Shown here piece after piece: positions 4,701-19,138 of a stretch of 59,706 bases of DNA. The stretch lies in the NCBI GenBank assembly GCA_034435095.1, contig DAOTYC010000143.1:1-59706 (forward strand), in the 5' to 3' direction. Origin of the DNA: Anaerolineae bacterium. Lineage in GTDB: Bacteria > Chloroflexota > Anaerolineae > DAOTYC01. Both the position numbers and the translations under genes were made by a program. Each line of letters opens with the position of its first letter. The stretch's first letter is position 1. The notes beneath the pieces are model-generated. The model had not been told where the DNA came from. It worked only from the letters and a program-made list of their open reading frames with translations, and searched no databases.

Positions 4701-5015
4701 ATGGTGGATACAGCAACGCAAGACAATGGGACATCTACAAGAAAAACAGGTTTGTGGCACAAACTAAGCGGGCCAGTGAAGGTCGGCCTGCTTTTTGCGG
4801 CCATCGCCATCATCATGGCCCTCGTCGGCATCCTCAGGGGCTCTTCGACCACGCCGATTACCTTCCGTTCGATAGCGATGGCCGTGCTCATCTCGGGCGG
4901 TACCTGGGGAGTGGTCAGTTGGGCCATCGCCACCGCGGTCGTCGAGGTGGAGAAGGACGTGGCGGAGGCCGAGGGCGACGAAGCCGGGCCCGGCTCTGCG
5001 CCCACGCAGCCCTGA
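4701..5015 (+). CDS. Small two-helix membrane protein, unknown function
   Basis: ATG 4701 after GGAGG (ORF track starts at 4647); two hydrophobic segments and an acidic tail. Confidence 0.7.
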   Translation: MVDTATQDNGTSTRKTGLWHKLSGPVKVGLLFAAIAIIMALVGILRGSSTTPITFRSIAMAVLISGGTWGVVSWAIATAVVEVEKDVAEAEGDEAGPGSAPTQP

Positions 5016-5940: not shown

Positions 5941-6097
5941 GCGCCTCGGACAGGACGGTCGGAAATTTCCACCGAAAAGGGCGCGATACGCCGGGACACG
6001 CGGAATTGTGCTTTTGGGGCGAACTCTGGTATAATGACACTCTTGCCAGAGGCTGACCTGATTCTGGCAGACAGATGCAATAAGGGGTTCGTTTCTT

Positions 6098-7561
6098 ATG
6101 GCGCAAAGGTCTTTGCGTGTGATGTTGATCGTGCCCGGGGCGACGCTGCCGATTGCCACGCGGACGTCCCCGCAGTTGGGCATCGCCTATCTGGCGGCGG
6201 TATCAGAAGCGCGGGGCGATGCGGTGCGCGTCTATGACGGCGATGTCGAAGACATGCCATTGGACAAAGCCGTGCGGGACTTTGAGCCAGACCTGGTGGG
6301 CATCACCGCCAACACCACCCAGATCAAGGGGGCCTGGCGCGACGCCGACATCATCAAACAGTGGCGAGACGTGCCGGTCGTCCTGGGCGGCCCGCACCCC
6401 TCCGTCCTGCCCGATGAGTCGCTGGCGCGCGGCAGCATTGATGGGGTTGTGCGCGGCGAGGGCGAGGAGACCTGGCGCGAGCTGGGCGATGTGCTGGCTG
6501 CCCATTGGCGGCGCGGAACGCCGTATCGCAGCGCTGAGTCGGGGCTGTGGCCGGAAGACGGCTCGCCGCTCGAGCGGGTCGCCGGCCTGTCCTATCGCCG
6601 GCCCGATGGGCGCATCGTACACAATCCGAACCGCCCGCCGATTTCGGATTTGAGCAGTATCCCCCTGCCGGCCTATCACCTGCTCAAGATGGACCGCTAC
6701 ACCAACCTGCAACCGACGCTCGACCAGGTGCAGGGCTTCAGCCTGCCCATCATGACCTCGCGCGGCTGTCCCTACCGCTGCACGTATTGCGCCCAGATCA
6801 TGGACCGCCGCTGGCGTATGAGAAGCCCCCAAGACGTGGTGCGCGAGTGGGAGTGGCTTGTCCGTGAGCAGGGCGCCGGCGAGATCGGCGTGCTCGACGA
6901 TTCATTCAACATAGACCGCCAACGTGTGCTGGACATCTGCGACCTGCTCATCGAGCGGAAGCTGAACCATGTGCCCTGGATCATGATCAACGGCATCCGC
7001 GCCAACCTGGCCGACGAAGAGACGCTGGGGCGGATGAAAGCCGCCGGCTGTATTCGCACGGCGTTCGGCGTGGAAAGTGGCAATCAGGCCATCCTGGACT
7101 CGGTCATCAAGAAGCGTCTGACTCTGGATCAGGTTCGACGGGCCTTCGCCGCGGCCAGAGCGGTGGGCATGGAAACCATTGGCTTCTTCATCATCGGGAT
7201 GCCCGGCGAGACAGAGCAGACCATGGAGGACACCATCCGTTTTGCCTGCGAGCTTGACCCGCTGGTCGCCAATTTCTCCATTGCCACGCCGTTCCCGGGC
7301 ACCGAAATGTATCAGACCGTGCTGCAAAAGGGCCGCCTGCTGGTCAACGATTACGACGATTACGTGTTCTTCGAGGGCAAGGCCCGCTTTGAGATGGATG
7401 GCCTGCCGGCCGGCCTGGTCGAGCGCAAGTGGCGGGAAGCCTATCGCCGCTTCTACCTGCGGCCGCACCGCGTCCTCAACATCCTGGCCCGCAAGAAAAC
7501 CTGGCTCGACCTGCCACGAACGGTCCAGATGGCCTGGCGCACGGTCGTATCGTCATCGTGA
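6098..7561 (+). CDS. B12-binding-domain radical SAM protein (paralog 1)
   Basis: PQLGIAYLAA, DLVGIT, GGPHPS, VVRGEGE (cobalamin-binding domain); TSRGCPYRCTYC (CxxxCxxC); GVESG; FFIIGMPGET; PFPGT. TGG-TATAAT -10 element near 6029-6034. Confidence 0.92.
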   Translation: MAQRSLRVMLIVPGATLPIATRTSPQLGIAYLAAVSEARGDAVRVYDGDVEDMPLDKAVRDFEPDLVGITANTTQIKGAWRDADIIKQWRDVPVVLGGPHPSVLPDESLARGSIDGVVRGEGEETWRELGDVLAAHWRRGTPYRSAESGLWPEDGSPLERVAGLSYRRPDGRIVHNPNRPPISDLSSIPLPAYHLLKMDRYTNLQPTLDQVQGFSLPIMTSRGCPYRCTYCAQIMDRRWRMRSPQDVVREWEWLVREQGAGEIGVLDDSFNIDRQRVLDICDLLIERKLNHVPWIMINGIRANLADEETLGRMKAAGCIRTAFGVESGNQAILDSVIKKRLTLDQVRRAFAAARAVGMETIGFFIIGMPGETEQTMEDTIRFACELDPLVANFSIATPFPGTEMYQTVLQKGRLLVNDYDDYVFFEGKARFEMDGLPAGLVERKWREAYRRFYLRPHRVLNILARKKTWLDLPRTVQMAWRTVVSSS

Positions 7562-7570
7562 GGGAGGAAG

Positions 7571-8554
7571 GTGACCGATTTGAGTAACCGGATTCAGTGC
7601 AGCATCGGCGTGACAGCCTACAATGAAGAGGCCAATATCGGCCAGTTGCTGACCGCCCTGCGCCGACAGCGTTTGCTGCGCGTCGAAATTGTCGAAATCA
7701 TCGTGGTCGCCAGCGCGTGCACCGACCGCACGGAAGACATCGTGCGCCAACACGCCGCCGAAGACCCGCGCATCAAGTTGATCTGTCAGGAACGGCGCGA
7801 GGGCAAGACTTCGGCGATCAATCTCTTCCTGCAAGAGGCCCGCTGCGACATCTGCGTCCTGGAGAGCGGCGACACGGTCGCCCATGAAGACTGCGTGGAG
7901 AACATGGTTTCCATGTTCGACGACCCGGCCATCGGCATGGTGGGAGCGCAGAAAGTGCCTGTCAACGCTTCGGATCAGCTCATCGGCTATCTGTCGCACC
8001 TGCGGCTCAAAATGGAACACCAGTTGTGCCTGGAGATCCCCCGTCTGGGCGAGATGATTGCCTTCCGCAGAGTCTTCGACGCCATCCCGCCCGACGTGGC
8101 GATGGACGAAGCCTTCGTTGAGGCTCTGGTTATCCGGCGTGGTCTACAGGTGCGTTACGCGCCCAACGCCATCGTCTACAACATGGGGCCGGAGACCCTG
8201 GGCGATTTCATCCGTCAGCGGCGGCGCAACCACGCCGGCCATCTGTATCTGCGCCACAAGTATGGCTACCGCGTCTCCAGCCTGGACTCGCCGCGCGTCA
8301 TGCGCATCGCGCTGGGCGAGGTCTGGGAAGCCCTGCGCATCATCTACGTGCTGGCCGTGCTGGCGGCCATCGAGATGTTCTCCCGTGCGCTGGGCGCATA
8401 CGATTTTTACATCAAGAAAGACACGCACGTCGTCTGGGATATGGCCTGGACGACCAAGCGGGTGGACACCAGCAAAATAGAGAAATCTCTGGAAGGCACG
8501 GCCGGCCTGACGAAAGCGTTTGGCCCTTCCACAGGCTTGCCGAAGGATAAGTGA
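7571..8554 (+). CDS. Glycosyltransferase family 2
   Basis: VTAYNEEANI, IIVVASAC.D, GKTSAIN, MDEAF (ED-like), QRRRN (QxxRW-like) and a C-terminal hydrophobic segment. Confidence 0.88.
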   Translation: MTDLSNRIQCSIGVTAYNEEANIGQLLTALRRQRLLRVEIVEIIVVASACTDRTEDIVRQHAAEDPRIKLICQERREGKTSAINLFLQEARCDICVLESGDTVAHEDCVENMVSMFDDPAIGMVGAQKVPVNASDQLIGYLSHLRLKMEHQLCLEIPRLGEMIAFRRVFDAIPPDVAMDEAFVEALVIRRGLQVRYAPNAIVYNMGPETLGDFIRQRRRNHAGHLYLRHKYGYRVSSLDSPRVMRIALGEVWEALRIIYVLAVLAAIEMFSRALGAYDFYIKKDTHVVWDMAWTTKRVDTSKIEKSLEGTAGLTKAFGPSTGLPKDK

Positions 8555-9576
8555 CCATTACAATCATGAAAGATAAACTGCTCACCGCTCTAAAGGTCGT
8601 CATCAGCCTGGGTCTCATCGCCTACCTGCTGTACCGGGCCGACCTGAATGTCGTGATAGCCTCCATCCGCTCGGCCAATTACGCCTATCTGGTCGGCGGT
8701 GTCCTGCTCTACGCCGGCGCGGTGACGGCCGGCGGCCTGAAGTGGTATATCCTGCTGCGGGCGCAGGGCATCCTGATCTCGTTTGGGGAACTGTTGAGCT
8801 ACACGTTTGTCGGCGTGTTCTTCAACAATTTCCTGCCGGCCAACGTCGGAGGAGATGTCATGCGCGGCTATGGCCTGGCCCGCTATACCGAGCGTGCCGC
8901 CGAAGCGGCTGTCTCCGTGGTCGTTGACCGGGTGGTCGGCCTGATCGCTTTTATGAGCGCGGCTTTTGCGTCCTCTCTGGCAGCCGTATTCATCATCGGG
9001 CGCCATGAACTGCTGACCATCGTCATCGCCTCCGGCCTGGCGACACTGGCCCTCGCTTGTCTGTTCGCCGCCGTTTTGAGCCGCCACATCCGTGCCTGGG
9101 TCGAACGCCTGTTTGCCGTCAGGCTGCTGGCCCGCTTCGCGCCACTCTATCATCGGTTGTCGGATGCGCTGACCGCCTATCGCTTCAAGTTCGGCCGGCT
9201 GTTCGTGGCCTACTGTGTCTCCCTGATGACGCTGGCTCTGTCGAACTTCTCCATTTACGTGACGGCAGAGGCCCTGGGCGGCGGAGTGCCGCTGTGGGCC
9301 ATCTTTCTCTTCAACCCGCTCATCGCCTTCGTCTTGCTCATTCCCATTTCGGTCGGCGGGCTGGGCCTGAACCAGGGCGCGTTTGTGTTCTTCTACGGTC
9401 TGGTGGGCATACCCGGCCAGGTCATCTTCCCTGTCTCGCTGATGATGCAGTTTATCATTTATCTGACCAGCCTGCCGGGCGGGTTGCTCTGGCTGCGTTC
9501 CAGGAGACGCGGGGCAGCCTGGCCTGACGCCGTCGCCCCCTCGCATGTGCGAGCCGACGACGTGCGGCTGCGCTAG
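8551..9576 (+). CDS. UPF0104 / lysylphosphatidylglycerol-synthase TM-domain (flippase-like) membrane protein
   Basis: LKVVISLGLIAYLL, KW.ILL, FFNNFLPANVGGD, VVVDR..G, IPISVGGLG; overlaps the GT2 stop (GTGA). Confidence 0.88.
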   Translation: MTITIMKDKLLTALKVVISLGLIAYLLYRADLNVVIASIRSANYAYLVGGVLLYAGAVTAGGLKWYILLRAQGILISFGELLSYTFVGVFFNNFLPANVGGDVMRGYGLARYTERAAEAAVSVVVDRVVGLIAFMSAAFASSLAAVFIIGRHELLTIVIASGLATLALACLFAAVLSRHIRAWVERLFAVRLLARFAPLYHRLSDALTAYRFKFGRLFVAYCVSLMTLALSNFSIYVTAEALGGGVPLWAIFLFNPLIAFVLLIPISVGGLGLNQGAFVFFYGLVGIPGQVIFPVSLMMQFIIYLTSLPGGLLWLRSRRRGAAWPDAVAPSHVRADDVRLR

Positions 9577-9593
9577 GGAGGTCAAGGCCCGCG

Positions 9594-11066
9594 ATGAAGT
9601 GTCTGTTCGTCAGCCCCATCTCCGACGTCTGGAATGAACGCAAACACATCTCATTGGGACTGGGCTATCTGGCCGCTGTCGTGTTGCAGGCCGGCCACCA
9701 GGCCCGCATCTTCGACGCCGCGGTCGAAGACATGTCGCTGGCCGATGTCCTGGCCCAAGAACGCTTTGACATCGTGGGGATCACCGCCACCACGCCGCTC
9801 ATCTACGAGGCCTGGCAGGCGGCCAGGCTGGCTAAAGAGCACGGCGCGCTGACCATCCTGGGCGGGGCGCATCCCACGCTGCTGCCCCAGGAGAGCATCG
9901 AACGGCCTGAAGTGGACCTGGTCGTGCGCGGCGAAGGCGAGGACACGCTGCTGGAGATCATCGAGCTCGCGTCAGGCCTGCCAGATGTCGCCGGCCAGCA
10001 GCGCCGTTTCGACCGCGCGACCTGGGAGCGCGTGCGGGGCATTACCTTCCGCTCATTGGAGGGCGAAATTGTCCATACGCCGGCCCGCCCGCTGCGCAAG
10101 GACCTGGATAGCCTGCCGTTCCCGGCCCATCACTTGATTGACATAACCAAATACACCAACCTGCAGCCGCTGACCGATGGCCTTGATCCCCACGCGCGGG
10201 CCTACACCATCGTGACCTCGCGCGGCTGCCCCTACAGTTGCATCTATTGTTCAAAGGCCATTACCGGCCGGAGCTGGCGGCCCCGTTCGCCGGACAGCGT
10301 GGTGGCCGAGTGGCGCTGGCTGGTGCGCGACCTGAAGGCCACTGAGATCGGCGTCACCGACGACTCGATGACCACCGACCTGAACCGCGCCAAGGCCATT
10401 TGCCGTCGGCTGATTGATGAGGGGCTGAACACCGTGCCCTGGATCACCGTTCACGGTATCCGCGCCGGCGACACCGACCTGGAGCTGCTGCGTCTGATGA
10501 AACAGGCCGGCTGCAAGCGGGTCGGTTTTGGCGTGGAAAGCGGCAACCAGCGCATCCTCGACTCTATCAAGAAGAAACAGACCATCGAGGAGGTGCGTCG
10601 CGCCTTCGACAACGCCAGGAAGGCGGGCCTGGAGACGATGGGCTTCTTCATTTTCGGCCTGCCGGGCGAGACCGAAGAGACGATGGACGACACCATCCGA
10701 CTGGCGCTCGAGCTCGAGCCGGACATGGCTAATTTCATGATCGCCGCCCCTTATCCGGGCACCGAAATGTATGAGACCGTGTTGCAGCACGGCCGTTTAT
10801 TCAGCCACAACTGGCGCGACTTTGCCATCCACGACGAGAAGGCCCGCTTCGAGATCGGCGACGTGACGGCGGAGCTGGTGGAACGCAAGTGGCACGAAGC
10901 CTATCGCCGCTTCTACCTGCGCCCGAGCCGCATCTGGCGCAAGGCGACCAACCCGCGCTTCTGGCGTGACCTGCCGACCGTGGTGTCCAATTTCCGGCGG
11001 TTCTTTTTGGCGAAGCGAGCGCATCGAGAGAGTGGACTGAGCGGCACCACGGCTGGGCGCAGATGA
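9594..11066 (+). CDS. B12-binding-domain radical SAM protein (paralog 2)
   Basis: SLGLGYLAA, GGAHPT, VVRGEGE, TSRGCPYSCIYC, GVESG, FFIFGLPGET; clearly homologous to 6098..7561 (e.g. KYTNLQP, EAYRRFYLRP). Confidence 0.92.
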   Translation: MKCLFVSPISDVWNERKHISLGLGYLAAVVLQAGHQARIFDAAVEDMSLADVLAQERFDIVGITATTPLIYEAWQAARLAKEHGALTILGGAHPTLLPQESIERPEVDLVVRGEGEDTLLEIIELASGLPDVAGQQRRFDRATWERVRGITFRSLEGEIVHTPARPLRKDLDSLPFPAHHLIDITKYTNLQPLTDGLDPHARAYTIVTSRGCPYSCIYCSKAITGRSWRPRSPDSVVAEWRWLVRDLKATEIGVTDDSMTTDLNRAKAICRRLIDEGLNTVPWITVHGIRAGDTDLELLRLMKQAGCKRVGFGVESGNQRILDSIKKKQTIEEVRRAFDNARKAGLETMGFFIFGLPGETEETMDDTIRLALELEPDMANFMIAAPYPGTEMYETVLQHGRLFSHNWRDFAIHDEKARFEIGDVTAELVERKWHEAYRRFYLRPSRIWRKATNPRFWRDLPTVVSNFRRFFLAKRAHRESGLSGTTAGRR

Positions 11067-11120
11067 ACGCCGATGCCGGCGTGATGGCTGTCCATCCGCG
11101 TGACTCTGCGTTCATCTGCG
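11058..11120. repeat. 13-bp perfect inverted repeat (CGCAGATGAACGC / GCGTTCATCTGCG)
   Basis: Arms at 11058-11070 and 11108-11120; the left arm contains the stop codon of radical SAM 2. Confidence 0.7.
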
Positions 11121-11151
11121 GTTTCAAGAACCGGAGGGCGAATGTGAGCAC

Positions 11152-11787
11152 ATGATTACAGAGGAGCAGGCCAGGGCCTATTACGCCGATAACGACGTCT
11201 CGCACGATTTCGACCATGTGTTGCGGGTCACCGCGCTGGCGGAACGCATCGCTCGCGCTGAAGGCGCGGACCCGGCGGTCGTCCGCACTGCCGCGCTTCT
11301 CCACGACATCGGCCGGGCAGAGCAGTCGCGCACGGGGGCGTGCCACGCTGAGACCGGCGCGCGCCGGGCACGGGAGATCCTGGCCGCCTGCCCTCCTGAG
11401 TTCGTCGAGGCTGTCGCCCATGCCATCGCCGCCCACCGCTACCGCGACCCGGAGCACGCGCCGCAGACGTTGGAGGCCAAAGTGCTGTTCGACGCCGATA
11501 AGCTCGATGCCATGGGCGCTATCGGCGTGGGGCGGGCCTTCGCCATGGCCGGCAAGCGACGGCAGCACCTGTGGAGCCCGCTCGATGCGCCAGTCGTCGG
11601 CGACCGGAGCGCGATCATCGAGGGAGTGACCGAAGACCATACGCCGGTGCAGGAGTACTTGTTCAAACTGCGCCACCTGCGCGATGCGATGTTCACCAAC
11701 ACGGGGCGCGCGCTGGCCGCCGGGCGGCATCGCTTCATGGCCGCCTTCTTCGAGCGGCTCGAACGTGAGGTAAAGGGCGAGATATAG
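11152..11787 (+). CDS. HD-domain phosphohydrolase
   Basis: HDFDHVLRV, LLHDIG, DADKLDAMGAIG. Confidence 0.9.
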   Translation: MITEEQARAYYADNDVSHDFDHVLRVTALAERIARAEGADPAVVRTAALLHDIGRAEQSRTGACHAETGARRAREILAACPPEFVEAVAHAIAAHRYRDPEHAPQTLEAKVLFDADKLDAMGAIGVGRAFAMAGKRRQHLWSPLDAPVVGDRSAIIEGVTEDHTPVQEYLFKLRHLRDAMFTNTGRALAAGRHRFMAAFFERLEREVKGEI

Positions 11788-11918
11788 GGGCGGATGGGCG
11801 ACAACAAAGGATATGTGACCGTTCGCATTGCCATCAGCACGCCGCAGGCGGCAGAGTAGACCGCGCTTCGTTATCGCCATTCTTCGTGTATACTTGTAGC
11901 CATGATGAGGAGAGGGGT

Positions 11919-13265
11919 GTGAACGGATCAGAACCGGAGGCCGGGCCTGGCGGTGTGAGGAGCCACGCGGATCGTGTCTCTGTCGGCCACTCCCTGGGGC
12001 TGGTCATTTTGGCTGTGGCCGTTTTTGTCCTGTACTCGTTTGGTCTGTACGCCGCGTTTACTTCCAGGTGGCAGGGCGGCAGTGACTTTTTCCCGCGTTG
12101 GTCGGGCGCCCAGATGCTGTTCCTGGAGGGCAAAAGCCCGTATTCGCTGGAAGCCACGCAGCGAACACAGCGCGCGCTCTACAACGGCCGCCTGGCCCGA
12201 GAAGACGAGGATCAGGTCGCTTTTGCCTACCCCATCTATGCGGTCTATTTTGTTGCGCCGTTGATCTTTCTAAGTTACGCGCAGGCTCTGGCGGTCTGGA
12301 TGGTGATGCTGCAATTCGCGCTGTGCGCTATGTTGGGCCTGTGCATGTCTCTCTACGGCTGGCGGCCGGCGGCATGGCTGACCGCGGCGACCGGCCTCTG
12401 GATGATCCTCAATTACAACAGCGGCGAGGCGATCATCGTCGGCCAATTGGGGGTCATCGTCGCCCTGATGGTGACGCTGGCCTTGTGGTCGCTCCACGCT
12501 GGCCGCGACTGGTGGGCCGGCGCATTTCTCGCGCTCAGCACCATCAAGCCGCAGATGGTCTTTCTGATCATCCCTTTGCTGCTGTTGTGGTCGCTGACCA
12601 AACGTCGCTGGGGAGTGGCGCTTGGGTTCGGGCTCGCCATGATCGCGCTGGCCGGTTCAGGCTGGTTGCTTGTCCCTGACTGGATTGTCCAGTCTATCGC
12701 CGGAATGCAGCAATATGCTCGCTACACGGCCTACGGCGGGCCGAGCTGGCTGCTGACTGAATACTACTTCCCCTTTCTTGGCCGCCCGGCGAACATAGCC
12801 CTGACCCTGGCTCTGGTGGGCTACCTGGCATGGCAGTGGCGCGCGGTATGGGGGCTGCACATGGCAGGCCGCGGAATGCGAATCCCCCAATCCGAAATCT
12901 CAGGTGCCGAATGCGGAAGGCCATCCGCCTGGCCGTCGCTCTGGTGGGTAACGGGGCTGACCCTGATCGTTACGCAGCTCATCGCGCCACACACGGCGAC
13001 GGCCAACTACGTCATTCTGTACATCCCGGTGCTGTTCGCTTTCAGCGTCTTAGACCGCCAGTTCCGCTTCGGGCGGTGGTACATCCTGGCGTTCGAGCTG
13101 GGCAGCCTGGTCGGGTTTTGGACGCTGTTCGCGCTGACGGTCGTGCCCGAGCGCGGCGGCAACCTGCCGCAGGAAGACCCTATCATGTACCTCCCGCTGC
13201 CTCTTCTGCTGTTGCTGGCCTTCATCCTGGGCCGCAGCCGACTGATGCGCGTGGAGGGGGGATAG
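11919..13265 (+). CDS. GT87 / DUF2029-like polyprenyl-phospho-sugar-dependent glycosyltransferase (GT-C fold)
   Basis: GTG 11919 after AGGAGAGG; SDFFPRW, FAYP, GQLG, IKPQ motifs; about 10 TM segments. Confidence 0.8.
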   Translation: MNGSEPEAGPGGVRSHADRVSVGHSLGLVILAVAVFVLYSFGLYAAFTSRWQGGSDFFPRWSGAQMLFLEGKSPYSLEATQRTQRALYNGRLAREDEDQVAFAYPIYAVYFVAPLIFLSYAQALAVWMVMLQFALCAMLGLCMSLYGWRPAAWLTAATGLWMILNYNSGEAIIVGQLGVIVALMVTLALWSLHAGRDWWAGAFLALSTIKPQMVFLIIPLLLLWSLTKRRWGVALGFGLAMIALAGSGWLLVPDWIVQSIAGMQQYARYTAYGGPSWLLTEYYFPFLGRPANIALTLALVGYLAWQWRAVWGLHMAGRGMRIPQSEISGAECGRPSAWPSLWWVTGLTLIVTQLIAPHTATANYVILYIPVLFAFSVLDRQFRFGRWYILAFELGSLVGFWTLFALTVVPERGGNLPQEDPIMYLPLPLLLLLAFILGRSRLMRVEGG

Positions 13266-13269
13266 GCCG

Positions 13270-15354
13270 ATGAAGGAGAGGCCAGATTGGCGGTGGCTGC
13301 TCTCGGTGGCAGCAGCGATGGCGTGGGCTTTCGTGGTCATCGCGCTGTACTATGTGGTTCACAAGCCCATCGGGCTAAGTAATGCCGCTGCCCTGCTCTC
13401 CGCGCTGCGCGACTTGCTGGTCGCCGCCCTGGTGATCGGGGCAGGGACAGGGATCGGCCTGCGTTGTTTGGCGAGGGCAGGAGACATGGCGGGTGGGCAG
13501 GGCGCCGACGCGCTTGAGACGCTGCTGTTCGGCGCGGGATTGGGCCTCGGTGCGCTCGGCCTGATCATGCTGGGCGTGGGCCTGGTGGGCGGACTCTACC
13601 GGCCGGTGATGTGGGCTCTGGTCATCGGCGGGCTGGCGCTGGGGGGACGTGAGGCGATTCGGCTGGTCCGGCGTGCTTGGGGTGAGGCATTGCCCTTGCC
13701 GGCCGGGCTGTTCTACCGATTTGTCGCCGTTTTCATCGGCGCCACGCTCGTGCTGGCGTTGCTGCAGGCCCTCTTGCCGCCAACCGCCTGGGACAGCCTG
13801 ACCTATCACCTGACCGGGCCAAAGCTGTATCTTGAGGCGCACCGCTTCATCCCAGATGTGGACATCGTTCACCTGGGCTTTCCGGCTCTGATCGAGATGC
13901 TCTACGCGGCGGGCATGTCGCTGGGCAGCTCGGCAGTCCCACAGGTTATCGGGTGGGCCTTTGGGCTCTTGACGCTGCTGCTCATGTACGCTTTTGTGCG
14001 CCGCCATCTGGCCGGTGAGTTGAGCAGCGATGGACAGGCCCGGACGGGTGGGACGCCGTCAACTTGGGACGTGCGAGTGGCCTGGCTCGCTATGGCCCTG
14101 CTGCTCAGCGCGCCAACCGTTGTTTTGCTCTTGCATTGGGCATACGTTGAGCCCGCGCTCATGTTCTATGAACTGAGCGCGGTTTATGCCTTCGTCCGCT
14201 GGCGCGAATCGGATGACCGGCGCTGGCTGGCCCTGGCTGGCGTCTGCTGTGGCTTCGGGATGGGGGCCAAGTATACCGCCGTAAGCCTGACCGTGGCCCT
14301 GGCCTTGCTCGTGCTGTGGCGCCGGCGGGCGATGCTCTGGCGCGGCGGCCTGCCCGACGTATTGCGGTTCGGCGGCGTGGCTGGCCTGGTCACATTGCCC
14401 TGGTTGCTCAAGAATGGTTTCTTCTTGGGCAACCCTTTCTACCCGTTTGTGTTCGGCGGTGTTCATTGGGATGCGCAGCGACAGGCCTGGTATGCGCAGC
14501 CAGGCAGCGGGCTGGCCTATACGGCGCCATGGCAACTGCTGACCGCCCCCTGGGACATGACGATCTACGGGATTGAAGGCAAAGTCGGTTTCTCGGCGAC
14601 CATCGGCCCGCTCTACCTGATCGGTCTGTTTATCCTGCCCTTTGTGTGGCGCCACATCCCCACGTCACAAAGAGACGTATTGCGCCCCGTGCTGGCGGTC
14701 TGCGGCGTGCAGTATGTGCTCTGGCTGGCGGCAGCGGCGCAATCGGGCCCGCTGGTGCAGACGCGCTTGCTGCTGCCGGCCTTCCCGCTTCTGGCGATGC
14801 TGGCCGCCAGTGGATTCGTCCATGCCGCTGCGCTCCGTCGGCCGCAGTTTGCACTGGACTGGGTGCTGAAAGTTGTGGTCGCGTTGAGCCTGAGCTTAAA
14901 CCTGCTGGGCGCCCTCGTGGATGCGGTTGCCACCAACCCGCTCGCCCATACCTTCGGCTGGGAGTCGGAGAGGGATTACCTGAACCGCCGCCTGGGCTGG
15001 CATTATGCGACGATGGAGCACATCAACCGTGAGCTGCCGCAGGGCAGCCGGCTGTACTATCTGTGGGAGACGCGCAGCTTCTATTGTGATCGCCCCTCTC
15101 GGCCCGATGCGGTCCTGGACGCCTTTTTGCACCTGGTGTACCGCTTCGGCGACGCCTCGGCCATCGCCGCCCATCTAAAAGCGGCAGGCTACACGCACGT
15201 CTTGCTGTACCAACAGGGCCTGGAGTTCGTGCTGGCCGAAACGGATACGCCTTTGGGCGAACGCGAACTCGCCATCCTGGATGAGCTTCGGGCCGACTAC
15301 CTGCGGCCCGTCCATGTGGGAGGCCAGGCGTATGTCCTGTACGAGCTGCGTTAG
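13270..15354 (+). CDS. Large polytopic GT-C (PMT_2/ArnT-like) membrane protein, paralog 1
   Basis: PPTAWDSLTYHL loop motif, GMGAKYT, PWLLKN..GNP; many TM helices; soluble C-terminal domain. Confidence 0.75.
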   Translation: MKERPDWRWLLSVAAAMAWAFVVIALYYVVHKPIGLSNAAALLSALRDLLVAALVIGAGTGIGLRCLARAGDMAGGQGADALETLLFGAGLGLGALGLIMLGVGLVGGLYRPVMWALVIGGLALGGREAIRLVRRAWGEALPLPAGLFYRFVAVFIGATLVLALLQALLPPTAWDSLTYHLTGPKLYLEAHRFIPDVDIVHLGFPALIEMLYAAGMSLGSSAVPQVIGWAFGLLTLLLMYAFVRRHLAGELSSDGQARTGGTPSTWDVRVAWLAMALLLSAPTVVLLLHWAYVEPALMFYELSAVYAFVRWRESDDRRWLALAGVCCGFGMGAKYTAVSLTVALALLVLWRRRAMLWRGGLPDVLRFGGVAGLVTLPWLLKNGFFLGNPFYPFVFGGVHWDAQRQAWYAQPGSGLAYTAPWQLLTAPWDMTIYGIEGKVGFSATIGPLYLIGLFILPFVWRHIPTSQRDVLRPVLAVCGVQYVLWLAAAAQSGPLVQTRLLLPAFPLLAMLAASGFVHAAALRRPQFALDWVLKVVVALSLSLNLLGALVDAVATNPLAHTFGWESERDYLNRRLGWHYATMEHINRELPQGSRLYYLWETRSFYCDRPSRPDAVLDAFLHLVYRFGDASAIAAHLKAAGYTHVLLYQQGLEFVLAETDTPLGERELAILDELRADYLRPVHVGGQAYVLYELR

Positions 15355-15383
15355 TCAGGCCCTCACGCCAGGAGGGCCTTGAC

Positions 15384-17414
15384 ATGAAACCAACCCGCAG
15401 CGGGCCGTGGTTTCTGCCGGTCGCCGCCATCACCGTCTGGTCGTTCGTTGTGATGGCGCTTTATTACCTGGTCCACAAACCACTCGGCCCGGTCAACGCG
15501 CAAGCCATTGTTTTGGCCTGTCTGGACCTGGCCGCTGCCGGCAGCGTCGTTTACGTTGGAATCGGCGTCGGGGCGCGGCTGCTGCCGGAATTGCCGGCGA
15601 CTTCCCCGGCGGAGCGTCTGGCCCTGTCGGCCGGCCTGGGAATGGGCGCCATCGGCCTGATCGTACTGGCCGTAGGGGTGATGGGCGGCCTATATCTCAG
15701 CATCTTGGGCCTCTTGATGTGCGTCGGGCTTGTCTGGGCCACGCCGCACACCGTCTCGCTCATAAAAAGCGTTCAGCAGGCCGGCCGCGCTGCCCTGTCC
15801 CGTCGCCAGCCAGGCGACGCGGTCTCTCGCTTCATGATGGTCTTCACGGTAGCGCTTCTCCTCTTGTCTCTTCTGAAGTCGCTTACGCCGCCAACCTCCT
15901 GGGATAGCCTGGTCTATCACTTGACGGGGCCCAAGCTGTGGGTGCAGGCGCATCGCATCTGGCCCGCCCTGGAAATGCCGTTCGGAGGCTACCCGTCTCT
16001 GACGGAAATGCTTTTCACGGTGGGGATGTTGCTCGGACGGCCGGCGGTAGCCCAGCTCATCCATTGGACTTTTGGCGTGTTGCTGCTGCTGTTGCTCTAC
16101 GCGCTGGTGCGCAGATACTTCGATCCCAGAATAGCCTGGCTGTCTGTGGCTATCCTGGTTGGCTCGCCAGTCGTGACGGGCCAGCTCTCGTGGGCTTACG
16201 TGGACATCGCGTTGATGTATTTTGCTCTGGCTGCTGTGTATGCTGTGCTGCGCTGGCAGGAGACTGATGAAGTGCGGTGGCTGTGGGTCGCCGGCGTGTT
16301 CGGTGGATTGGCGATGGGCGTGAAGTACACCGGCGTCGCGACAGTGGGGGCGCTATGTCTCTTCACACTTTGGCGCAGCCGTTCAGGAGGCTTCGCCAGA
16401 GTGCGCGGCCATTTGCTTGCGCTCGGCCTGCCGGCAGCCGCTCTGGCCCTGCCGTGGCTGTTGCGCAACTGGGCGTTCACCGGCAACCCGGTCGCCCCTT
16501 TTGTGTTTGAGACGGCGGGCTGGGACGCCGCGCGCCAGGCCTTTTGTGCGCGGCCTGGCACTGGCCTGGCGTATGTGGCGCCGTGGCGACTGCTGACGGC
16601 CCCCTGGGACATGACCATGCAGCATCCGGAGTCTGTGGCGGGCTTCGGCTCGGAGATTGGGCCGCTCCTGCTGCTCGGCCTGCCGTTGTTGGCCGTGACC
16701 TGGCGCTCCGCCCCGCCGCGCGAGAAGAACGTGCTGCGCGCTCTGCTGCTGATGAGCCTGCCTCAGTACATGTTCTGGCTCGTCGGCGTCGCTGAATCGC
16801 TGATGTTGCAGCAGGTTCGCCTGCTGCTCCCCGTTTTTCCGCTCGCATCTGTGGCGGCTGCATTTGGGCTGGCGCGTATGCACGATTTGCGCCGTCCCAT
16901 GCTCAATGTAGGCTGGGTGCTTCAGGCCATCGTTGTGCTTGCGTTGTGTTTGACTTTGCTCCAAAACATGGCAGACTTTGTGCGACAGAACCCGCTGGCC
17001 TATATCGCCGGCTACCAGTCGGCGGACGACTATCTGAAAGCGCACCTGTGGTCCCATTACCTGGCCATGGACTACATCAATCGGGAATTGCCGCCGCAGG
17101 CCAACGTGTTCTTCCTTTGGGAGACACGCAGTTTCTATTGCGACCGCCGCTGTCGTCCAGACCTTGTGCCGGATGCCTTCCGGGAGCTGCGCGCCCGTTT
17201 TGGCACTGCGCCGGGTATCGCGGAGCACCTCAAAGGCGCGGGCTATACCCATGTGCTGCTCTATCAGTGGGGGATGGACTTTGTCATCAATGAGGAGGAT
17301 GGTTCGCTGGATGAGCAGGACCTGGCGGTCTTTCGAGAACTGGAGCGGGACTACCTGAGGCCGGTTCACCGGGTTGCAGAAGGCCAGCCCTTTGTGCTCT
17401 ATGAGATCCGCTAA
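15384..17414 (+). CDS. Large polytopic GT-C (PMT_2/ArnT-like) membrane protein, paralog 2
   Basis: PPTSWDSLVYHL, AMGVKYT, PWLLRN..GNP, LAYVAPWRLLTAPWDMT, LWETRSFYCDR shared with 13270..15354. Confidence 0.75.
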   Translation: MKPTRSGPWFLPVAAITVWSFVVMALYYLVHKPLGPVNAQAIVLACLDLAAAGSVVYVGIGVGARLLPELPATSPAERLALSAGLGMGAIGLIVLAVGVMGGLYLSILGLLMCVGLVWATPHTVSLIKSVQQAGRAALSRRQPGDAVSRFMMVFTVALLLLSLLKSLTPPTSWDSLVYHLTGPKLWVQAHRIWPALEMPFGGYPSLTEMLFTVGMLLGRPAVAQLIHWTFGVLLLLLLYALVRRYFDPRIAWLSVAILVGSPVVTGQLSWAYVDIALMYFALAAVYAVLRWQETDEVRWLWVAGVFGGLAMGVKYTGVATVGALCLFTLWRSRSGGFARVRGHLLALGLPAAALALPWLLRNWAFTGNPVAPFVFETAGWDAARQAFCARPGTGLAYVAPWRLLTAPWDMTMQHPESVAGFGSEIGPLLLLGLPLLAVTWRSAPPREKNVLRALLLMSLPQYMFWLVGVAESLMLQQVRLLLPVFPLASVAAAFGLARMHDLRRPMLNVGWVLQAIVVLALCLTLLQNMADFVRQNPLAYIAGYQSADDYLKAHLWSHYLAMDYINRELPPQANVFFLWETRSFYCDRRCRPDLVPDAFRELRARFGTAPGIAEHLKGAGYTHVLLYQWGMDFVINEEDGSLDEQDLAVFRELERDYLRPVHRVAEGQPFVLYEIR

Positions 17415-17426
17415 TCGGAGGGCGAC

Positions 17427-19007
17427 ATGAAGTCGGCGGAAAGCATCCTGAAATATCTGCTGGTGGTCGCTGCGCTTGGCTACCTGGTGATGTATCTGTT
17501 TGTTGCTCTGTCGCGGCTGGGCTATCCGTTCGGACTGGAATGGATGGAAGGCGGGGCAGTGGATCATGTGCGCTGGATTCTGGCCGGGCGTCCACTGTAC
17601 GGCCGACCGATGCTTGAGTTTATTGCCTATGCCTATACGCCGTTGTATTACTATCTGGGGGCGGCTGTGGCCTACGTTCTGGGCGTGGGGCTTATGCCGT
17701 TGCGCCTGATTTCATTGCTGGCCTCGCTGGGCTGTTTCGCCGTTATCTACCTGTGGGTCAGGCGCGAGACGCGCGCCGCGTTCTTCGGCCTGCTGTCGGC
17801 CGGCATGTTCGCAGCAACGTTCCGGCCTGGCGGGGCCTGGTTCGACCTGGCCCGCGTGGACACGCTGTTTCTGTTGTTCGTGCTGCTGGCCCTCTACGCC
17901 CTTCGCTGGATGGCCCCGTCCGCCAGCTCAGGAGCGGAGCAGAGCGACGGACCGCAGGCGCGTCGGCCTGCGCGGGCCTGGCTTGCGTCTTCCGCCGCGG
18001 CCGGGCTGTGGCTGGTTCTGGCCTTTCAGACCAAGCAGACGGCACTGGTGGTGGCTCTGCCGCTGATGGCCTACGCGCTGGTCGCCCACGGGCGACGGGC
18101 GGTAACGTTCGTTGGCGTGGCCGGCCTCGGTATAGTCGGCAGCGTGTGGTCGCTGAACTACCTGTATGGCGGCTGGTACAACTACTACGTCTTCGACCTG
18201 CCTCGCCGACATGCCATCGTCCCGCGCGTGTGGATTGATTTCTGGGTCACTGACATTTTCCTGGCCCTGTTCGTTGTCTGTCTGGTGACGCTGGCTTTGG
18301 GGGTCGGGCTGGCCCTGGACAGAAACCCCGGCAGACGCGACCTGTGGTTTTATCTGGCGGCCTTCGGCGGAATGCTGGCTGCGTCATGGGGGTCGCGGCT
18401 GTCCGATGGCGGCTATAACAATGTGCTGCTGCCCGCCTACGCGATGCTCTCAATCGGTTTTGGCCTGGGCGTCCATTGGCTTCTGGCGCGGACGGCGCAG
18501 TGGGCGACGGCCAGAAGGACAATGGCACATTGCTATCTGTTCCTGCTGTGCCTCATTCAGTTCCTGACCTTGCGCTACGACCCGTGGGCGCAGATTCCCA
18601 CGCGAGCCGACCTGGACAGCGGCTACCGGGCGGTCGAGCAGATCGCCCAACTGGACGGCGAGGTGTTCATCCCATACTGCGGTGGCCTGTCGGCGATGGC
18701 CGGCAAGCCGGCGCACGCCTCGGCGATGGGCCTGTTCGATGTCATCGGCTGGGACCGGCGGAGCCAGGCGGCGCAGGCCCTGGCCGCCGAGGTCCGCCAG
18801 GCGTTGGTCGGGCAGCGTTTCGGTGCGCTCATCCTGAACGAGCCGCAGGACTGGTTCGAACGCGCCTGGCGAGCCGAAACGACGACATATTACTCCCCGA
18901 CGGGCCAACTATTCGACGATCCGGCGGTCTTCTGGCCGGTAACGGGCATGAGGACGAGGCCGCAGACGATCTACCTGCCGACGGCGCCGCGCCAAGAGAC
19001 GCCCTGA
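17427..19007 (+). CDS. GT-C (ArnT/PMT_2-like) membrane glycosyltransferase
   Basis: GLEWMEG first-loop motif, YTPLYY, DLARVD, FQTKQT; polytopic. Confidence 0.7.
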   Translation: MKSAESILKYLLVVAALGYLVMYLFVALSRLGYPFGLEWMEGGAVDHVRWILAGRPLYGRPMLEFIAYAYTPLYYYLGAAVAYVLGVGLMPLRLISLLASLGCFAVIYLWVRRETRAAFFGLLSAGMFAATFRPGGAWFDLARVDTLFLLFVLLALYALRWMAPSASSGAEQSDGPQARRPARAWLASSAAAGLWLVLAFQTKQTALVVALPLMAYALVAHGRRAVTFVGVAGLGIVGSVWSLNYLYGGWYNYYVFDLPRRHAIVPRVWIDFWVTDIFLALFVVCLVTLALGVGLALDRNPGRRDLWFYLAAFGGMLAASWGSRLSDGGYNNVLLPAYAMLSIGFGLGVHWLLARTAQWATARRTMAHCYLFLLCLIQFLTLRYDPWAQIPTRADLDSGYRAVEQIAQLDGEVFIPYCGGLSAMAGKPAHASAMGLFDVIGWDRRSQAAQALAAEVRQALVGQRFGALILNEPQDWFERAWRAETTTYYSPTGQLFDDPAVFWPVTGMRTRPQTIYLPTAPRQETP

Positions 19008-19138
19008 GGACAAACGGGGGCGTTGCAGCCACATGACAGTTTGCTCCAGGAGTTGAAATGCCCCCAGTCAATTGACCATGTTTGGGATTTGGCCCGCTGC
19101 GTTATATACTGCGAGTATTACCGGAAGGAGGGGGAGCC

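Follow-up and report, generated by a model that had tools for sequence, protein, structure and literature searches.

Background

A cluster of nine genes in an Anaerolineae bacterium (Chloroflexota) raises the question whether two radical SAM enzymes (rSAM1 and rSAM2), a family-2 glycosyltransferase (GT2), a flippase-like membrane protein (FLP), an HD phosphohydrolase and four GT-C glycosyltransferases serve one envelope pathway, and which of them form its conserved part. The window in which the cluster lies, i.e. the whole stretch of DNA that was analysed, comprises 59,706 nucleotides of contig DAOTYC010000143.1. A first-pass annotation had proposed that a radically modified sugar is built on a lipid carrier, flipped and passed to the GT-C enzymes. 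The same logic operates in the GtrA/GtrB/GtrC, ArnC-ArnD-ArnE/F-ArnT and AglD-AglR-AglS systems, in which a GT2 step is followed by an optional modification, a flippase and a GT-C enzyme acting outside. These gene classes all lie in one operon both in arn and at the locus in the window, and in the ArnC/ArnD/ArnEF/ArnT pathway the sugar undergoes modification on its lipid, ahead of flipping and of use by the GT-C enzyme. The present genes differ in that the putative tailoring is assigned to radical SAMs, for which no such role in these three-component systems is known to us, and in that the GT-C partner varies by lineage. The donors of PimE and similar GT-C enzymes are polyprenyl-phosphate sugars from cytoplasmic synthases (PMC12041525), and the archaeal GT2 AglD, which loads mannose on dolichol phosphate, provides together with AglR and AglS a precedent for the transfer of a lipid-linked monosaccharide to a transferase outside (PMC3871713). 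In the literature we found neither a characterised member of the cassette described here nor a publication on it.

Results and discussion

Organization of the locus

All nine genes are encoded on the + strand between 6098 and 19007, in line with the first-pass annotation of a co-directional series with short or overlapping junctions (-4 to ~130 nt). In gene order, the intergenic distances are 9, -4 (or +11), 17, 85, 98-131, 4, 29 and 12 nt. The domain assignments also proved correct throughout, with all Pfam matches above their gathering scores. The region 5990..6097 on the same strand probably contains the operon promoter and leader, as read from the sequence: it holds an AAGGGG motif that resembles a Shine-Dalgarno sequence and, ~65 nt 5' of the start codon (ATG) of rSAM1, an extended -10-like element, TGGTATAAT. 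This element is absent from the output of the automatic sigma-70 scan because the -35 hexamer is weak, and no Rfam match to a riboswitch was obtained in the leader.

A conserved core smaller than the cluster

Comparison with other loci separated the cluster into conserved and variable parts. Among the independent Chloroflexota genome loci that were anchored on rSAM1 and had enough downstream sequence, 31 of 32 kept both the order and the strand of rSAM1-GT2-FLP, while the flanking genes varied widely. FLP lies directly 3' of GT2 in 52 of 57 metagenome loci anchored on GT2. The gap between rSAM1 and GT2-FLP is mostly short (<=131 nt in 19 of 31 loci), and the linkage persists where 0.3-2.3 kb has been inserted between rSAM1 and GT2. 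This recurrence of gene order is more than chance. The conserved core is GT2 plus FLP: rSAM1 stands directly 5' of GT2 in just 19 of 44 GT2-anchored loci (~43%), and one complete genome carries GT2-FLP with no rSAM adjoining. The absence of rSAM1 near GT2 in the other ~57% is an observation that weighs against a radically tailored, lipid-linked sugar as the product.

rSAM2 and the HD gene constitute a second conserved pair, found either next to the trio or at another site of the genomes that carry it. rSAM2 accompanies rSAM1-GT2-FLP at ~10 genome loci and lies on a different contig of the same metagenome-assembled genome (MAG) in at least 14 MAGs. In 8 of 17 loci the HD gene lies no more than 4 kb downstream of rSAM2, and at five metagenome loci it directly follows GT2-FLP without rSAM2. 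The combinations rSAM1-GT2-FLP-rSAM2-HD, GT2-FLP-HD, rSAM2-HD and rSAM1-GT2-FLP thus all occur, which is the pattern expected if the five genes share one pathway. The first-pass view of the two rSAMs as flanking members of one pathway unit holds for rSAM1 at the loci anchored on it, and less so for rSAM2, which is usually encoded elsewhere; the two paralogues seem to serve in tailoring and not as obligate core components. The core is therefore an uncharacterised cassette that is conserved across Anaerolineae (Chloroflexota), usually with two rSAM paralogues and the HD protein. Its genes are under strong purifying selection, and the class-wide identity of 65-75% for rSAM1 and GT2 indicates a strongly constrained function.

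Adjacency might also be synteny inherited within one class, with the rSAMs acting on a peptide, a cofactor or RNA and no pathway in common. All loci belong to one phylum, and MutS2, PheT and other housekeeping genes are neighbours shared by many of them; over half of the loci anchored on GT2 have no rSAM1 beside it, rSAM-only clusters without GT2 (L058-L060, L049) also contain relatives of the rSAMs, and the rSAM family, with more than 220,000 members, is chemically very diverse (PMC12931638). Inherited synteny fits poorly, however, with a trio that stays constant, and often tightly spaced, between variable flanks and across insertions, or with an HD gene linked both to rSAM2 and to GT2-FLP. 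Moreover, no precursor peptide, PqqD/RRE domain or tetrapyrrole genes were found near the cassette, and we regard this explanation as very improbable.

Two radical SAM paralogues

rSAM1 (6098..7561; 487 aa) is a class-B-type radical SAM protein with an N-terminal B12-binding domain (75.5 bits) and a radical SAM core (85 bits), in which the CxxxCxxC cysteines C224, C228 and C231 are invariant. It has more than 5000 homologues, with 65-86% identity within Anaerolineae. Its paralogue rSAM2 (9594..11066; 490 aa) has the same B12-binding and Radical_SAM domains and is 50% identical over the full length (BLASTP, E 8e-152). In the tree, rSAM1 and rSAM2 form clades with 99% and 100% bootstrap, respectively, grouped as sisters with 100%, and among the sampled loci both clades are limited to Chloroflexota. 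No clustering with characterised enzymes of unrelated function was seen. Since the rSAMs form clades of their own and the linkage of rSAM1 to GT2 and FLP is both tight and widespread, the first-pass interpretation of these enzymes withstands both comparisons.

The top NCBIfam match of both proteins is HpnJ, with scores of 202 and 214 bits (cutoff 578), while the BchE profile gives rSAM1 181 bits against a cutoff of 481. Identity to HpnJ and BchE is ~30% (~31-33% over the full length for HpnJ), and HpnJ groups in the tree with rSAMs from glycan clusters. The best PDB matches of rSAM1 are AprD4 (4e-31) and QCMT/9CCB (3e-19). The nearest annotated relatives, HpnJ, BchE and AprD4, act on sugars or rings, and the role proposed here for rSAM1 and rSAM2 resembles that of Cds from Sulfolobus, AprD4 and OxsB, radical SAMs that remodel sugars. 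The sugar substrate of Cds is already attached to a membrane lipid (PMC13459092), whereas AprD4, the best sequence match of rSAM1 in the PDB, has a soluble aminoglycoside as its substrate and is not a cobalamin-binding enzyme (PMC12931638). As a rough estimate, a non-methylating rearrangement, ring contraction or dehydration has somewhat less than an even chance of being the chemistry involved; C-methylation would be a serious but lesser candidate, and some other reaction is rather unlikely.

A synthase-like GT2 coupled to a flippase-like protein

GT2 (7571..8554; 327 aa) matches PF00535 (Glycos_transf_2), PF13641 (Glyco_tranf_2_3) and PF13632, and consists of a GT-A domain, an interface helix with QRRRN and one long hydrophobic helix (240-282). 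Among its 3612 homologues (70-90% identity), D52, D101, D179/E180 and Q216-R-R-R-N220 are invariant, and some match PF13506 (GT21, which covers ceramide glucosyltransferase and HpnI). The first-pass annotation had counted GT2 among enzymes that load sugars on polyprenyl phosphate, an assignment that did not hold. With hhalign, ArnC aligned with the N-terminal half only (probability 57) and HpnI reached a probability of 27, while PgaC aligned over 214 columns (probability 97.6, E 3e-12). The best PDB match by sequence is the Pyrobaculum calidifontis enzyme PcManGT (6YV7, E 1e-12), which also gave the best fold match to an AF2 model of mean pLDDT 76 (Foldseek TMq 0.57, 23% identity); hyaluronan and cellulose synthases are among the next-best folds (0.50-0.54), and GtrB scores lower (0.40-0.44). 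An ArnC/GtrB type was rejected on these grounds, and GT2 is synthase-like (PgaC/PcManGT-like) where GtrB, ArnC and DPMS are not. Polyprenyl phosphate as the acceptor is consequently an assumption here. PcManGT, which we take to be a dolichyl-phosphate-dependent mannosyltransferase, is a minimal cellulose-synthase-like enzyme and, like GT2, short, membrane-anchored and without a full channel, although it has three TM helices against one predicted in GT2 and the identity is low. Two properties of GT2 speak against a lipid-linked sugar: it is closest to PgaC, a processive synthase, and to families whose members glycosylate the hydroxyl groups of lipids (PF13506), and it is not detectably of the polyprenyl-phosphate subfamily.

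FLP (8551 (or 8566)..9576) overlaps the GT2 stop codon or begins directly after it. It is a polytopic PF03706/TIGR00374/UPF0104 protein with ~8 or more hydrophobic segments, and matches LPG_synthase_TM (137 bits vs 33.4) and TIGR00374 (87.6 vs 43.2); it had no PDB match by sequence. Its family belongs to the superfamily of the MprF flippase, AglD and HpnL, and InterPro IPR022791 unites AglD with the lysyl-PG synthase TM region. FLP is not HpnL, given a score of 50 bits against a cutoff of 196, and BLAST between the two was not significant. To our knowledge, flippase activity in PF03706 has been demonstrated solely for lysyl-PG in MprF, a limit that counts against export of a lipid-linked sugar, and HpnL has no established role.

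A split synthase offers another account of this pair: a PgaC/NodC-like GT2 would make a short beta-linked oligomer or polymer, the PF03706 protein would supply the membrane passage that GT2 has lost, and the rSAMs and the HD protein would modify the product or its primer. The PgaC alignment, in which QRRRN lies over QRLRW, the synthase folds and the nearly constant adjacency of GT2 and FLP with overlapping reading frames agree with such an arrangement. Processive synthases stack the acceptor sugar on the Trp of QxxRW; in GT2, which has a single hydrophobic helix, this position is however an invariant Asn, and we know of no PF03706 protein that conducts a polymer. PgaA/B/D-type export or polymer-modifying partners, as in the pga operon used for comparison, are missing, and the GT-C adjacency is left unexplained. 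We consider a split synthase improbable.

The HD protein (11152..11787; 211 aa) is a metal-dependent phosphohydrolase of the YedJ/YpgQ type. It matches Pfam HD with 74 bits and PRK10119 with 104 bits, the latter under the cutoff of 286, and its PDB matches are 2PQ7, 3GW7 (YedJ) and 5DQV (E 1e-21 to 1e-25). YpgQ and YedJ are nucleotide pyrophosphohydrolases for which we know of no glycolipid role, a resemblance that also sits uneasily with a lipid-linked sugar.

Relationship to hopanoid head-group genes

The hpnI-hpnJ-(hpnK)-hpnL genes, which convert bacteriohopanetetrol glucosamine to the cyclitol ether, encode the same three families, i.e. a GT2, a B12-domain rSAM and a PF03706 protein, and the hpn locus of Paraburkholderia graminis pPHS1_P has them in the order rSAM-GT2-PF03706 of the cassette. 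The parallel drawn by the first-pass annotation is thus sound for architecture and does not extend to orthology: scores are far below the Hpn cutoffs (22 bits against 310 for HpnI), and GT2 and HpnI share only the GT-A core. Judged by sequence, the relationship is one of architectural analogy. The cassette adds a second rSAM paralogue and the HD hydrolase, and the window has no hpnK, shc or hpnH; as the first-pass annotation had noted for cyclase and HpnK, no SHC or YdjC-type domain occurs among the larger ORFs of the window. In a survey, HpnI and HpnJ TIGRFAM matches were found solely in genomes with SHC and HpnH (bioRxiv 10.1101/2025.07.29.667474).

The cassette could nevertheless tailor the head group of a non-hopanoid lipid. 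The acceptor of GT2 would then be a hydroxyl group on a lipid that already resides in the membrane, whether diacylglycerol, a diol or alkyl-glycerol lipid or some other polyol lipid. Through rSAM1 and rSAM2 the sugar would become a head group that is carbocyclic or remodelled in another way, FLP would place the glycolipid in the outer leaflet, and the GT-Cs, where present, would extend it outside, as PimE does with PIMs, or be mere neighbours. Besides the shared triad, HpnJ as top match and the PF13506 matches of some GT2 homologues are consistent with this, as are the ring contraction proposed for HpnJ and calditol synthase (Cds; PMC13459092) and the ability of the GT87 enzyme PimE to use a glycolipid acceptor (PMC12041525). 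On the other hand, all three core proteins fall far under the Hpn equivalog cutoffs, the alignments of GT2 with HpnI and of FLP with HpnL are poor, and the rSAMs are equally close to BchE and HpnJ, with deep branching of the tree not resolved. An HpnK-type deacetylase is lacking in the window, no conserved neighbour points to an acceptor lipid, and this reading accounts less directly for the repeated proximity of GT-C genes. Head-group tailoring is possible, yet we think it rather unlikely.

GT-C genes beside the cassette

The GT87 gene (11886 (or 11919)..13265) encodes a GT-C glycosyltransferase of 448-459 aa with ~10-12 TM segments (Pfam GT87, 53 bits vs 25), whose first loop beyond TM1 carries the acidic residue D56 as part of 'GGSDFF'. 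GT-C 1 (13270..15354; 694 aa; PMT 39 bits, PMT_2 28.7 bits), with a 'WDSLTYH' motif after the N-terminal block of TM helices, and GT-C 2 (15384..17414; 676 aa; PMT_2 54 bits, PMT 40 bits) are PMT/PMT_2-like tandem paralogues with 48% identity. GT-C 3 (17427..19007; 526 aa) is a PMT_2-like protein with multiple TM segments and a borderline family match (27.3 bits, barely above the cutoff of 26.1). Neither the GT87 protein nor GT-C 2 had a PDB match by sequence.

Orthologues of these four genes were not found near the cassette at other loci, so that they are lineage-specific additions outside the conserved system. Non-orthologous genes of the GT-C clan (GT87, PMT_2, PIG-U-like) nonetheless lie right next to the cassette in five or more unrelated arrangements, of which the window is one. 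A PMT_2 gene sits between rSAM2 and HD at L003 and immediately 3' of FLP at L063, a divergent GT87 abuts the cassette at L004, GT87-like (c9) and PigN-like (c5) genes lie upstream of rSAM1 at 8-13 loci, and a PIG-U-like GT-C gene is directly 5' of GT2 at six. This repeated adjacency supports a tie between a lipid-linked sugar with its flippase and GT-C enzymes. The first-pass proposal that the cassette feeds GT-C enzymes stands in this general form, while the particular four are not a conserved part. Some of the adjacency may be background, as the neighbours are non-orthologous and Chloroflexota are rich in GT-C paralogues; the lack of orthology among these neighbours is also an observation against a lipid-linked donor.

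Conclusions

What the first-pass annotation observed at this locus is confirmed, and its interpretation is partly supported. Our preferred reading, tentative and just short of an even chance, is that of an envelope-glycoconjugate cassette of Chloroflexota (Anaerolineae) that makes a lipid-linked sugar, modifies it by radical chemistry and exports it to GT-C transferases facing outward. The monotopic GT2 would work on the cytoplasmic side, transferring a sugar from a nucleotide sugar to a membrane lipid carrier, most likely polyprenyl phosphate. rSAM1 and rSAM2 would then remodel the lipid-linked sugar by radical chemistry, and the HD phosphohydrolase may act on a phosphorylated intermediate or by-product. 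FLP, as the putatively translationally coupled, obligate partner of GT2, would move the product to the outer leaflet, a role for which the systems named above employ GtrA, ArnE/F (SMR-like) or members of the Wzx/AglR families. In the organism studied here, one GT87 and three PMT-like enzymes would use the product outside, as donor or acceptor, and wall polymers, lipoglycans or Pro/Thr-rich surface proteins may be the final targets.

Results

Nine co-directional genes on the plus strand

Nine open reading frames lie on the + strand between 6098 and 19007, in the order rSAM1, GT2, FLP (a PF03706/TIGR00374, UPF0104 flippase-like protein), rSAM2, HD, GT87 and the PMT/PMT_2-like genes GTC1, GTC2 and GTC3. 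Their GC3 is of the coding type (0.76-0.83), and an independent gene caller found the same nine genes on the source metagenome contig. The junctions measure 9 nt between rSAM1 and GT2, -4 nt (from the GTG start) or +11 nt (from the ATG start) between GT2 and FLP, 17 nt between FLP and rSAM2, 85 nt between rSAM2 and HD, 98-131 nt between HD and GT87, and 4, 29 and 12 nt among the GT-C genes from GT87 to GTC3. The co-directional cluster with short or overlapping junctions, as proposed in a first-pass annotation made from the sequence alone, is thus borne out by the ORF coordinates and the second gene caller, and each of its domain calls was matched by Pfam.

The closest matches of the window are MAGs of uncultured Anaerolineae (Chloroflexota), and an encoded aldehyde:ferredoxin oxidoreductase is consistent with an anaerobe. 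The remainder of the window contains no isoprenoid, lipid or nucleotide-sugar genes. Searching the whole window with Rfam at the gathering threshold returned only a tRNA-Gln and no riboswitch or other RNA, nor did the leader (5350-6150) yield any at E values up to 1, and promoters found in a sigma-70 and terminator scan did not exceed background.

Upstream of rSAM1, a 677-bp stretch without genes is built of repeats (5405-5940), comprising a 54-nt direct repeat at 5405 and 5578 (87% identical), an exact 25-nt repeat at 5550 and 5709, and 33-nt segments at 5426 and 5599 that are each complementary to 5906-5938. The core GTCATGCTGAG is present in three copies upstream of rSAM1 and in a fourth at 56752-56766. 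These repeats, which match no Rfam family, may represent a repeat element dispersed over intergenic regions. Also upstream of the cassette, two membrane proteins without family match are encoded, one of 104 aa with 2 TM helices (4701-5015, +) and one of 133 aa with 4 TM helices (5020-5421, +). Another 4-TM protein, of 132 aa, is encoded directly before GT2 in six metagenome loci and has no detectable similarity to either. Elsewhere in the window, adjacent paralogous FHA + Ig-like + CARDB proteins (29361-31442 and 31737-33761, - strand) and Ser/Thr protein kinases (36713-38497 and 57020-59428, + strand) have the appearance of a phospho-signalling module with no relation to the cassette.

Two paralogous radical SAM proteins separate from HpnJ and BchE

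rSAM1 and rSAM2 are paralogues, 50% identical over their full length. Both combine an N-terminal B12-binding Rossmann domain (PF02310, 75.5 bits in rSAM1 and 67.6 in rSAM2) with a radical SAM core (PF04055, 85 and 97 bits), and cysteines C224, C228 and C231 of the CxxxCxxC motif are invariant in the alignment of homologues; judged by domain content, both have a class B-type architecture. Among solved structures, sequence similarity is highest to AprD4, a sugar diol-dehydratase working without cobalamin, and to QCMT, a glutamine C-methyltransferase (PMC12931638). Because AprD4, the best PDB match, possesses a related N-terminal domain yet binds no cobalamin (PMC12931638), the B12-binding domain of the rSAMs is no proof of cobalamin use. 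GTC3 is followed after 74 nt by a co-directional NADP/F420-type oxidoreductase gene (19082-19753, +), which could encode a reductase partner, by analogy with AprD3 for AprD4, or be unrelated; it was not seen as a conserved neighbour at the other mapped loci.

The best curated-family match of both proteins is HpnJ (TIGR03471), with 202 bits for rSAM1 and 214.3 for rSAM2 against a cutoff of 577.6, while BchE (TIGR02026) scores 181 and 212 bits against 481.35, and identity to either reference is about 30%. The first-pass annotation had suggested comparing the rSAMs with these enzymes. In a bootstrapped NJ tree, with HpnJ, BchE and other reference genes taken from plasmid records, rSAM1 (99%) and rSAM2 (100%) form clades of their own that are sisters at 100% and stand apart from HpnJ and BchE (BchE clade 100%), the deeper nodes being unresolved. 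An assignment of either protein to HpnJ is ruled out by scores far under the cutoff and a position outside the HpnJ clade, and one to BchE by scores under the cutoff, the separate BchE clade and the genomic context, with no bch genes near the cassette.

In the same tree, the nearest non-Hpn relatives of HpnJ are found in glycan clusters on two plasmids. The Lawsonia intracellularis cluster (locus L087) contains GT2 genes, GalE, a SIS-domain gene and many SAM methyltransferases; that of Azospirillum lipoferum (L094) contains a GDP-fucose synthase, a kinase and a NUDIX gene. B12-domain radical SAM proteins that act on sugars may be commoner than thought.

A synthase-like GT2, a flippase-like protein and an HD protein

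GT2 had been taken for an enzyme of the polyprenyl-phosphate-loading type, which is not borne out. Its hhalign match to E. coli ArnC (probability 57.5) covers only 105 N-terminal columns, and Foldseek alignment with GtrB gives a TMq of 0.40-0.44 at an rmsd of at least 24 Å; the ArnC/GtrB/DPMS type was rejected on this match of the N-terminal half only and on one predicted long hydrophobic helix rather than two TM helices. HpnI (TIGR03472) was likewise rejected, on an HMM score of 22 bits against a cutoff of 310, a short BLASTP match (E 0.001 over 82 residues) and a low hhalign probability of 26.7. Nearer are PgaC (hhalign probability 97.6, E 3e-12, 214 columns) and PcManGT, a minimal cellulose-synthase-like mannosyltransferase and the best structural relative. 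An invariant QRRRN motif of GT2 aligns with QRLRW of PgaC, the Trp of QxxRW being replaced by Asn. Judged from these alignments, GT2 is probably synthase-like and not a canonical polyprenyl-phosphate GT2; it scores 69.6 bits against the TIGR03937 PgaC cutoff of 422 and has no predicted multi-TM channel. A split PgaC/NodC-like synthase would agree with the PgaC alignment, yet we find it quite improbable.

FLP has multiple hydrophobic segments and exceeds the cutoffs of PF03706 (137 bits, cutoff 33.4) and TIGR00374 (87.6 bits, cutoff 43.2), which identifies it as a predicted polytopic member of this membrane family with putative flippase activity. It was rejected as HpnL (50 bits, cutoff 195.65), and no solved relative was retrieved by PDB sequence search. 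The HD protein (Pfam HD, 74 bits) matches YedJ (3GW7) over its full length with an E value of 7e-24 and 5DQV with 5e-21, and scores 104 bits against the PRK10119 equivalog cutoff of 286; by similarity it is probably a phosphohydrolase of the YedJ/YpgQ type. The names carried by homologues of the cassette members ('BchE', 'YgiQ', 'PgaC') were assigned automatically and disagree with the curated cutoffs, and the database names of the members are generic or wrong.

Relation to hopanoid and three-component systems

A parallel with hpnJ/hpnI/hpnL, drawn in the first-pass annotation, stands at the level of architecture. The hpn locus of Mycetohabitans reads hpnI-hpnJ-hpnK-PF03706, and that of Paraburkholderia, hpnJ-hpnI-PF03706, shares its gene order with the cassette. 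This likeness is striking, yet membership of HpnJ, HpnI and HpnL failed throughout, every protein scoring under the Hpn cutoffs. HpnK and cyclase genes, already thought to be missing, were indeed not found in the 59.7-kb window, and neither the window nor the related loci contain shc, hpnH, hpnI or hpnK. Matches to the HpnI and HpnJ families have been reported only from genomes with SHC and HpnH (bioRxiv 10.1101/2025.07.29.667474). An Hpn-like head-group pathway acting on a resident membrane lipid, which the shared gene order would suit and the scores and gene content would not, appears rather unlikely to us. As in three-component lipid-linked glycosylation, GT2, flippase-like and GT-C classes occur together in one co-directional cluster; the canonical three-component GT2 subfamily, however, is not matched by the window GT2. 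By analogy, the cassette may work like an Hpn or a three-component system while belonging to neither.

Conservation of the cassette

A profile scan with rSAM1 and rSAM2, using one genome per species, yielded 481 relatives, and the window proteins were mapped onto the loci of the best 80. These 80 are Chloroflexota throughout, mostly Anaerolineae/Anaerolineales with some Caldilineae and one Ktedonobacter-labelled MAG. Conservation of the neighbourhood, proposed earlier as a check, was found in both surveys: among these best 80 of 481, an rSAM1-type gene is followed by GT2 and FLP on the same strand in 31 of the 32 loci that extend 4.5 kb or more downstream, and in a second survey of metagenome contigs, anchored on GT2, FLP directly follows GT2 in 52/57 loci. 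The rSAM1-GT2 spacer is at most 131 nt in 19 of the 31 loci; in the others, 0.3-2.3 kb of unrelated genes are inserted with the linkage intact. An rSAM2-type gene and HD form a second unit (8/17 loci), which adjoins the rSAM1-GT2-FLP trio in about 10 loci and lies on a separate contig in at least 14 MAGs. Only 19/44 GT2-anchored metagenome loci have rSAM1 upstream of GT2, five metagenome loci have GT2-FLP-HD without rSAM2, and one complete 5.35-Mb Anaerolineales genome has GT2-FLP without an adjacent rSAM. GT2-FLP is thus the obligate pair, often joined by rSAM1, rSAM2 and HD in varying sets. Such mixing is a pattern typical of genes sharing one pathway, and identities across the class of 65-75% for rSAM1 and 70-75% for GT2 indicate strong constraint. 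To mere synteny without a shared pathway we give very little credence.

GT2-FLP is missing from variant clusters in L058, L059, L060 (~10000-16300 in L060) and L049 (8288-11398), where one SPASM radical SAM gene accompanies three with a B12 domain, among them copies resembling rSAM1 (54%) and rSAM2 (56%). This composition suggests batteries of radical enzymes on a common substrate; annotation of these clusters gave no substrate clues.

GT-C genes as lineage-specific partners

The GT87 protein scores 53 bits against the Pfam GT87 cutoff of 25 and possesses an acidic residue, D56, in 'GGSDFF' just past TM1, at the position corresponding to D58 of PimE (PMC12041525). By this score and this acidic residue in the first extracytoplasmic loop, it is predicted to be a PimE-like GT-C of family GT87, although PimE gave no direct sequence match in a PDB sequence search, and neither GT87 nor GTC2 returned any match there. 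GTC1 (PMT 39.2, PMT_2 28.7 bits) and GTC2 (PMT_2 54, PMT 40.4 bits) are a tandem duplication with 48% identity, and GTC3 is borderline (PMT_2 27.3 bits, cutoff 26.1).

That these GT-C enzymes are fed by the cassette, as initially proposed, is upheld insofar as GT-C-clan genes recur beside it, and not as regards the four genes themselves. No orthologues of GT87 or the three PMT-like genes stand next to the cassette at the other mapped loci, so that the four were rejected as conserved members, and the GT-C genes that other lineages carry near the cassette show hardly any relationship to those of the window. At least five arrangements besides the window have GT-C-clan genes abutting the cassette: a PMT_2 gene between rSAM2 and HD (L003), a divergent GT87 upstream of rSAM1 (L004), a GT87-like gene with a PigN-like phosphodiesterase directly upstream of rSAM1 (8-13 genome and 4 metagenome loci), a PMT_2 gene right after FLP (L063), and a PIG-U-like GT-C directly upstream of GT2 in six loci without rSAM1. 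As Chloroflexota are rich in GT-C paralogues, this adjacency could partly be background; even so, that several independent layouts set such genes right beside the cassette and in its direction speaks for GT2-FLP and GT-C enzymes being functionally linked. As partners, the GT-C genes are interchangeable and specific to their lineage.

The PigN-like protein (L023:428-2167 and 12 other genome loci; metagenome loci L114, L118, L121 and L128) has its Phosphodiest/alkaline-phosphatase-type domain between a TM helix at the N-terminus and a TM block at the C-terminus; its gene lies directly upstream of rSAM1, with the GT87-like gene on the opposite strand, a pairing that recalls, by analogy, a GPI- or lipoglycan-type toolkit. 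Of the six loci with the PIG-U-like gene (L144:2546-5710, L120, L139, L146, L159, L169), four encode ahead of it a secreted, NosD-like beta-helix protein whose linker is rich in Pro and Thr. In the window, a 577-aa secreted protein without Pfam match (2900-4633, +) combines a 'WNEPD' motif resembling that of clan-A glycosidases with a Pro/Thr-rich linker (about 70 aa) and a membrane anchor at its C-terminus. It is a plausible candidate O-glycosylation substrate of the PMT-like GT-C enzymes. Relatives with 29% identity adjoin a PMT_2 GT-C near rSAM2 in L069 and L080.

Discussion

The cassette is real, widely conserved and uncharacterised, and its conserved unit is GT2-FLP plus rSAM1, rSAM2 and HD. 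From the interpretation first put forward, a radically modified sugar on a lipid carrier that is flipped and used by GT-C enzymes, the rSAM1-GT2-FLP linkage stands, whereas the GT-C genes are lineage-specific and GT2 is not of the canonical polyprenyl-phosphate type. Our tentative preference, held with somewhat less than even confidence, is a lipid-linked sugar pathway running from GT2 through rSAM1/rSAM2/HD and FLP to GT-C, for which we infer carrier, sugar, radical reaction and acceptors alike. GT2 would charge a membrane lipid carrier at the cytoplasmic face, rSAM1, rSAM2 and HD would tailor the product, FLP would translocate it, and GT-C enzymes would use it outside the membrane. A precedent for the tailoring step is the ArnC/ArnD/ArnEF/ArnT system, in which a lipid-linked sugar is modified before flipping. 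AglD/AglR/AglS (PMC3871713) is a precedent for handing a lipid-linked sugar to a transferase on the outside, and PimE with its polyprenyl-phosphate mannose donor (PMC12041525) is one for the GT-C step.

The more specific proposal that rSAM1/rSAM2-GT2-PF03706-HD makes a new kind of bacterial lipid-linked sugar is a speculative one that we consider unlikely as it stands. Such a carbocyclic (calditol- or cyclitol-like), ring-contracted, deoxygenated or C-branched hexose would arise by B12-type radical SAM chemistry on a lipid carrier, be flipped by the PF03706 protein and be installed by GT-C enzymes in the Anaerolineae envelope. Literature searches on HpnJ in Chloroflexi, on radical SAM, glycosyltransferase and flippase proteins of Anaerolineae and on Anaerolineae lipids and envelope found no paper describing the cassette and no characterised member, and it is absent from 2026 reviews of lipid-modifying and B12-dependent radical SAM enzymes.

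Sediments, digesters and activated sludge are rich in Anaerolineae, of whose envelope chemistry, to our knowledge, almost nothing is known. The class-wide identity of 65-75%, and the combination of a glycosyltransferase and flippase-like protein with two B12-type radical SAM proteins, point to an envelope component that is conserved and chemically unusual. The comparative data define a minimal testable unit, GT2 + FLP with or without rSAM1, rSAM2 and HD. Were the product a lipid-linked sugar remodelled by radical chemistry, the reactions known for class B radical SAM enzymes would reach beyond the hopanoid and archaeal calditol cases to polyprenyl- or lipid-linked glycans, PF03706/HpnL proteins could be tested for a role besides lysyl-PG flipping, and a new Chloroflexota lipid or glycan biomarker would be possible. 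Should the reading of a new kind of sugar hold, HpnL-type proteins would moreover get a function, and the hopanoid rSAM-GT2-PF03706 triad would be one case of a general module for radical sugar remodelling on a lipid.
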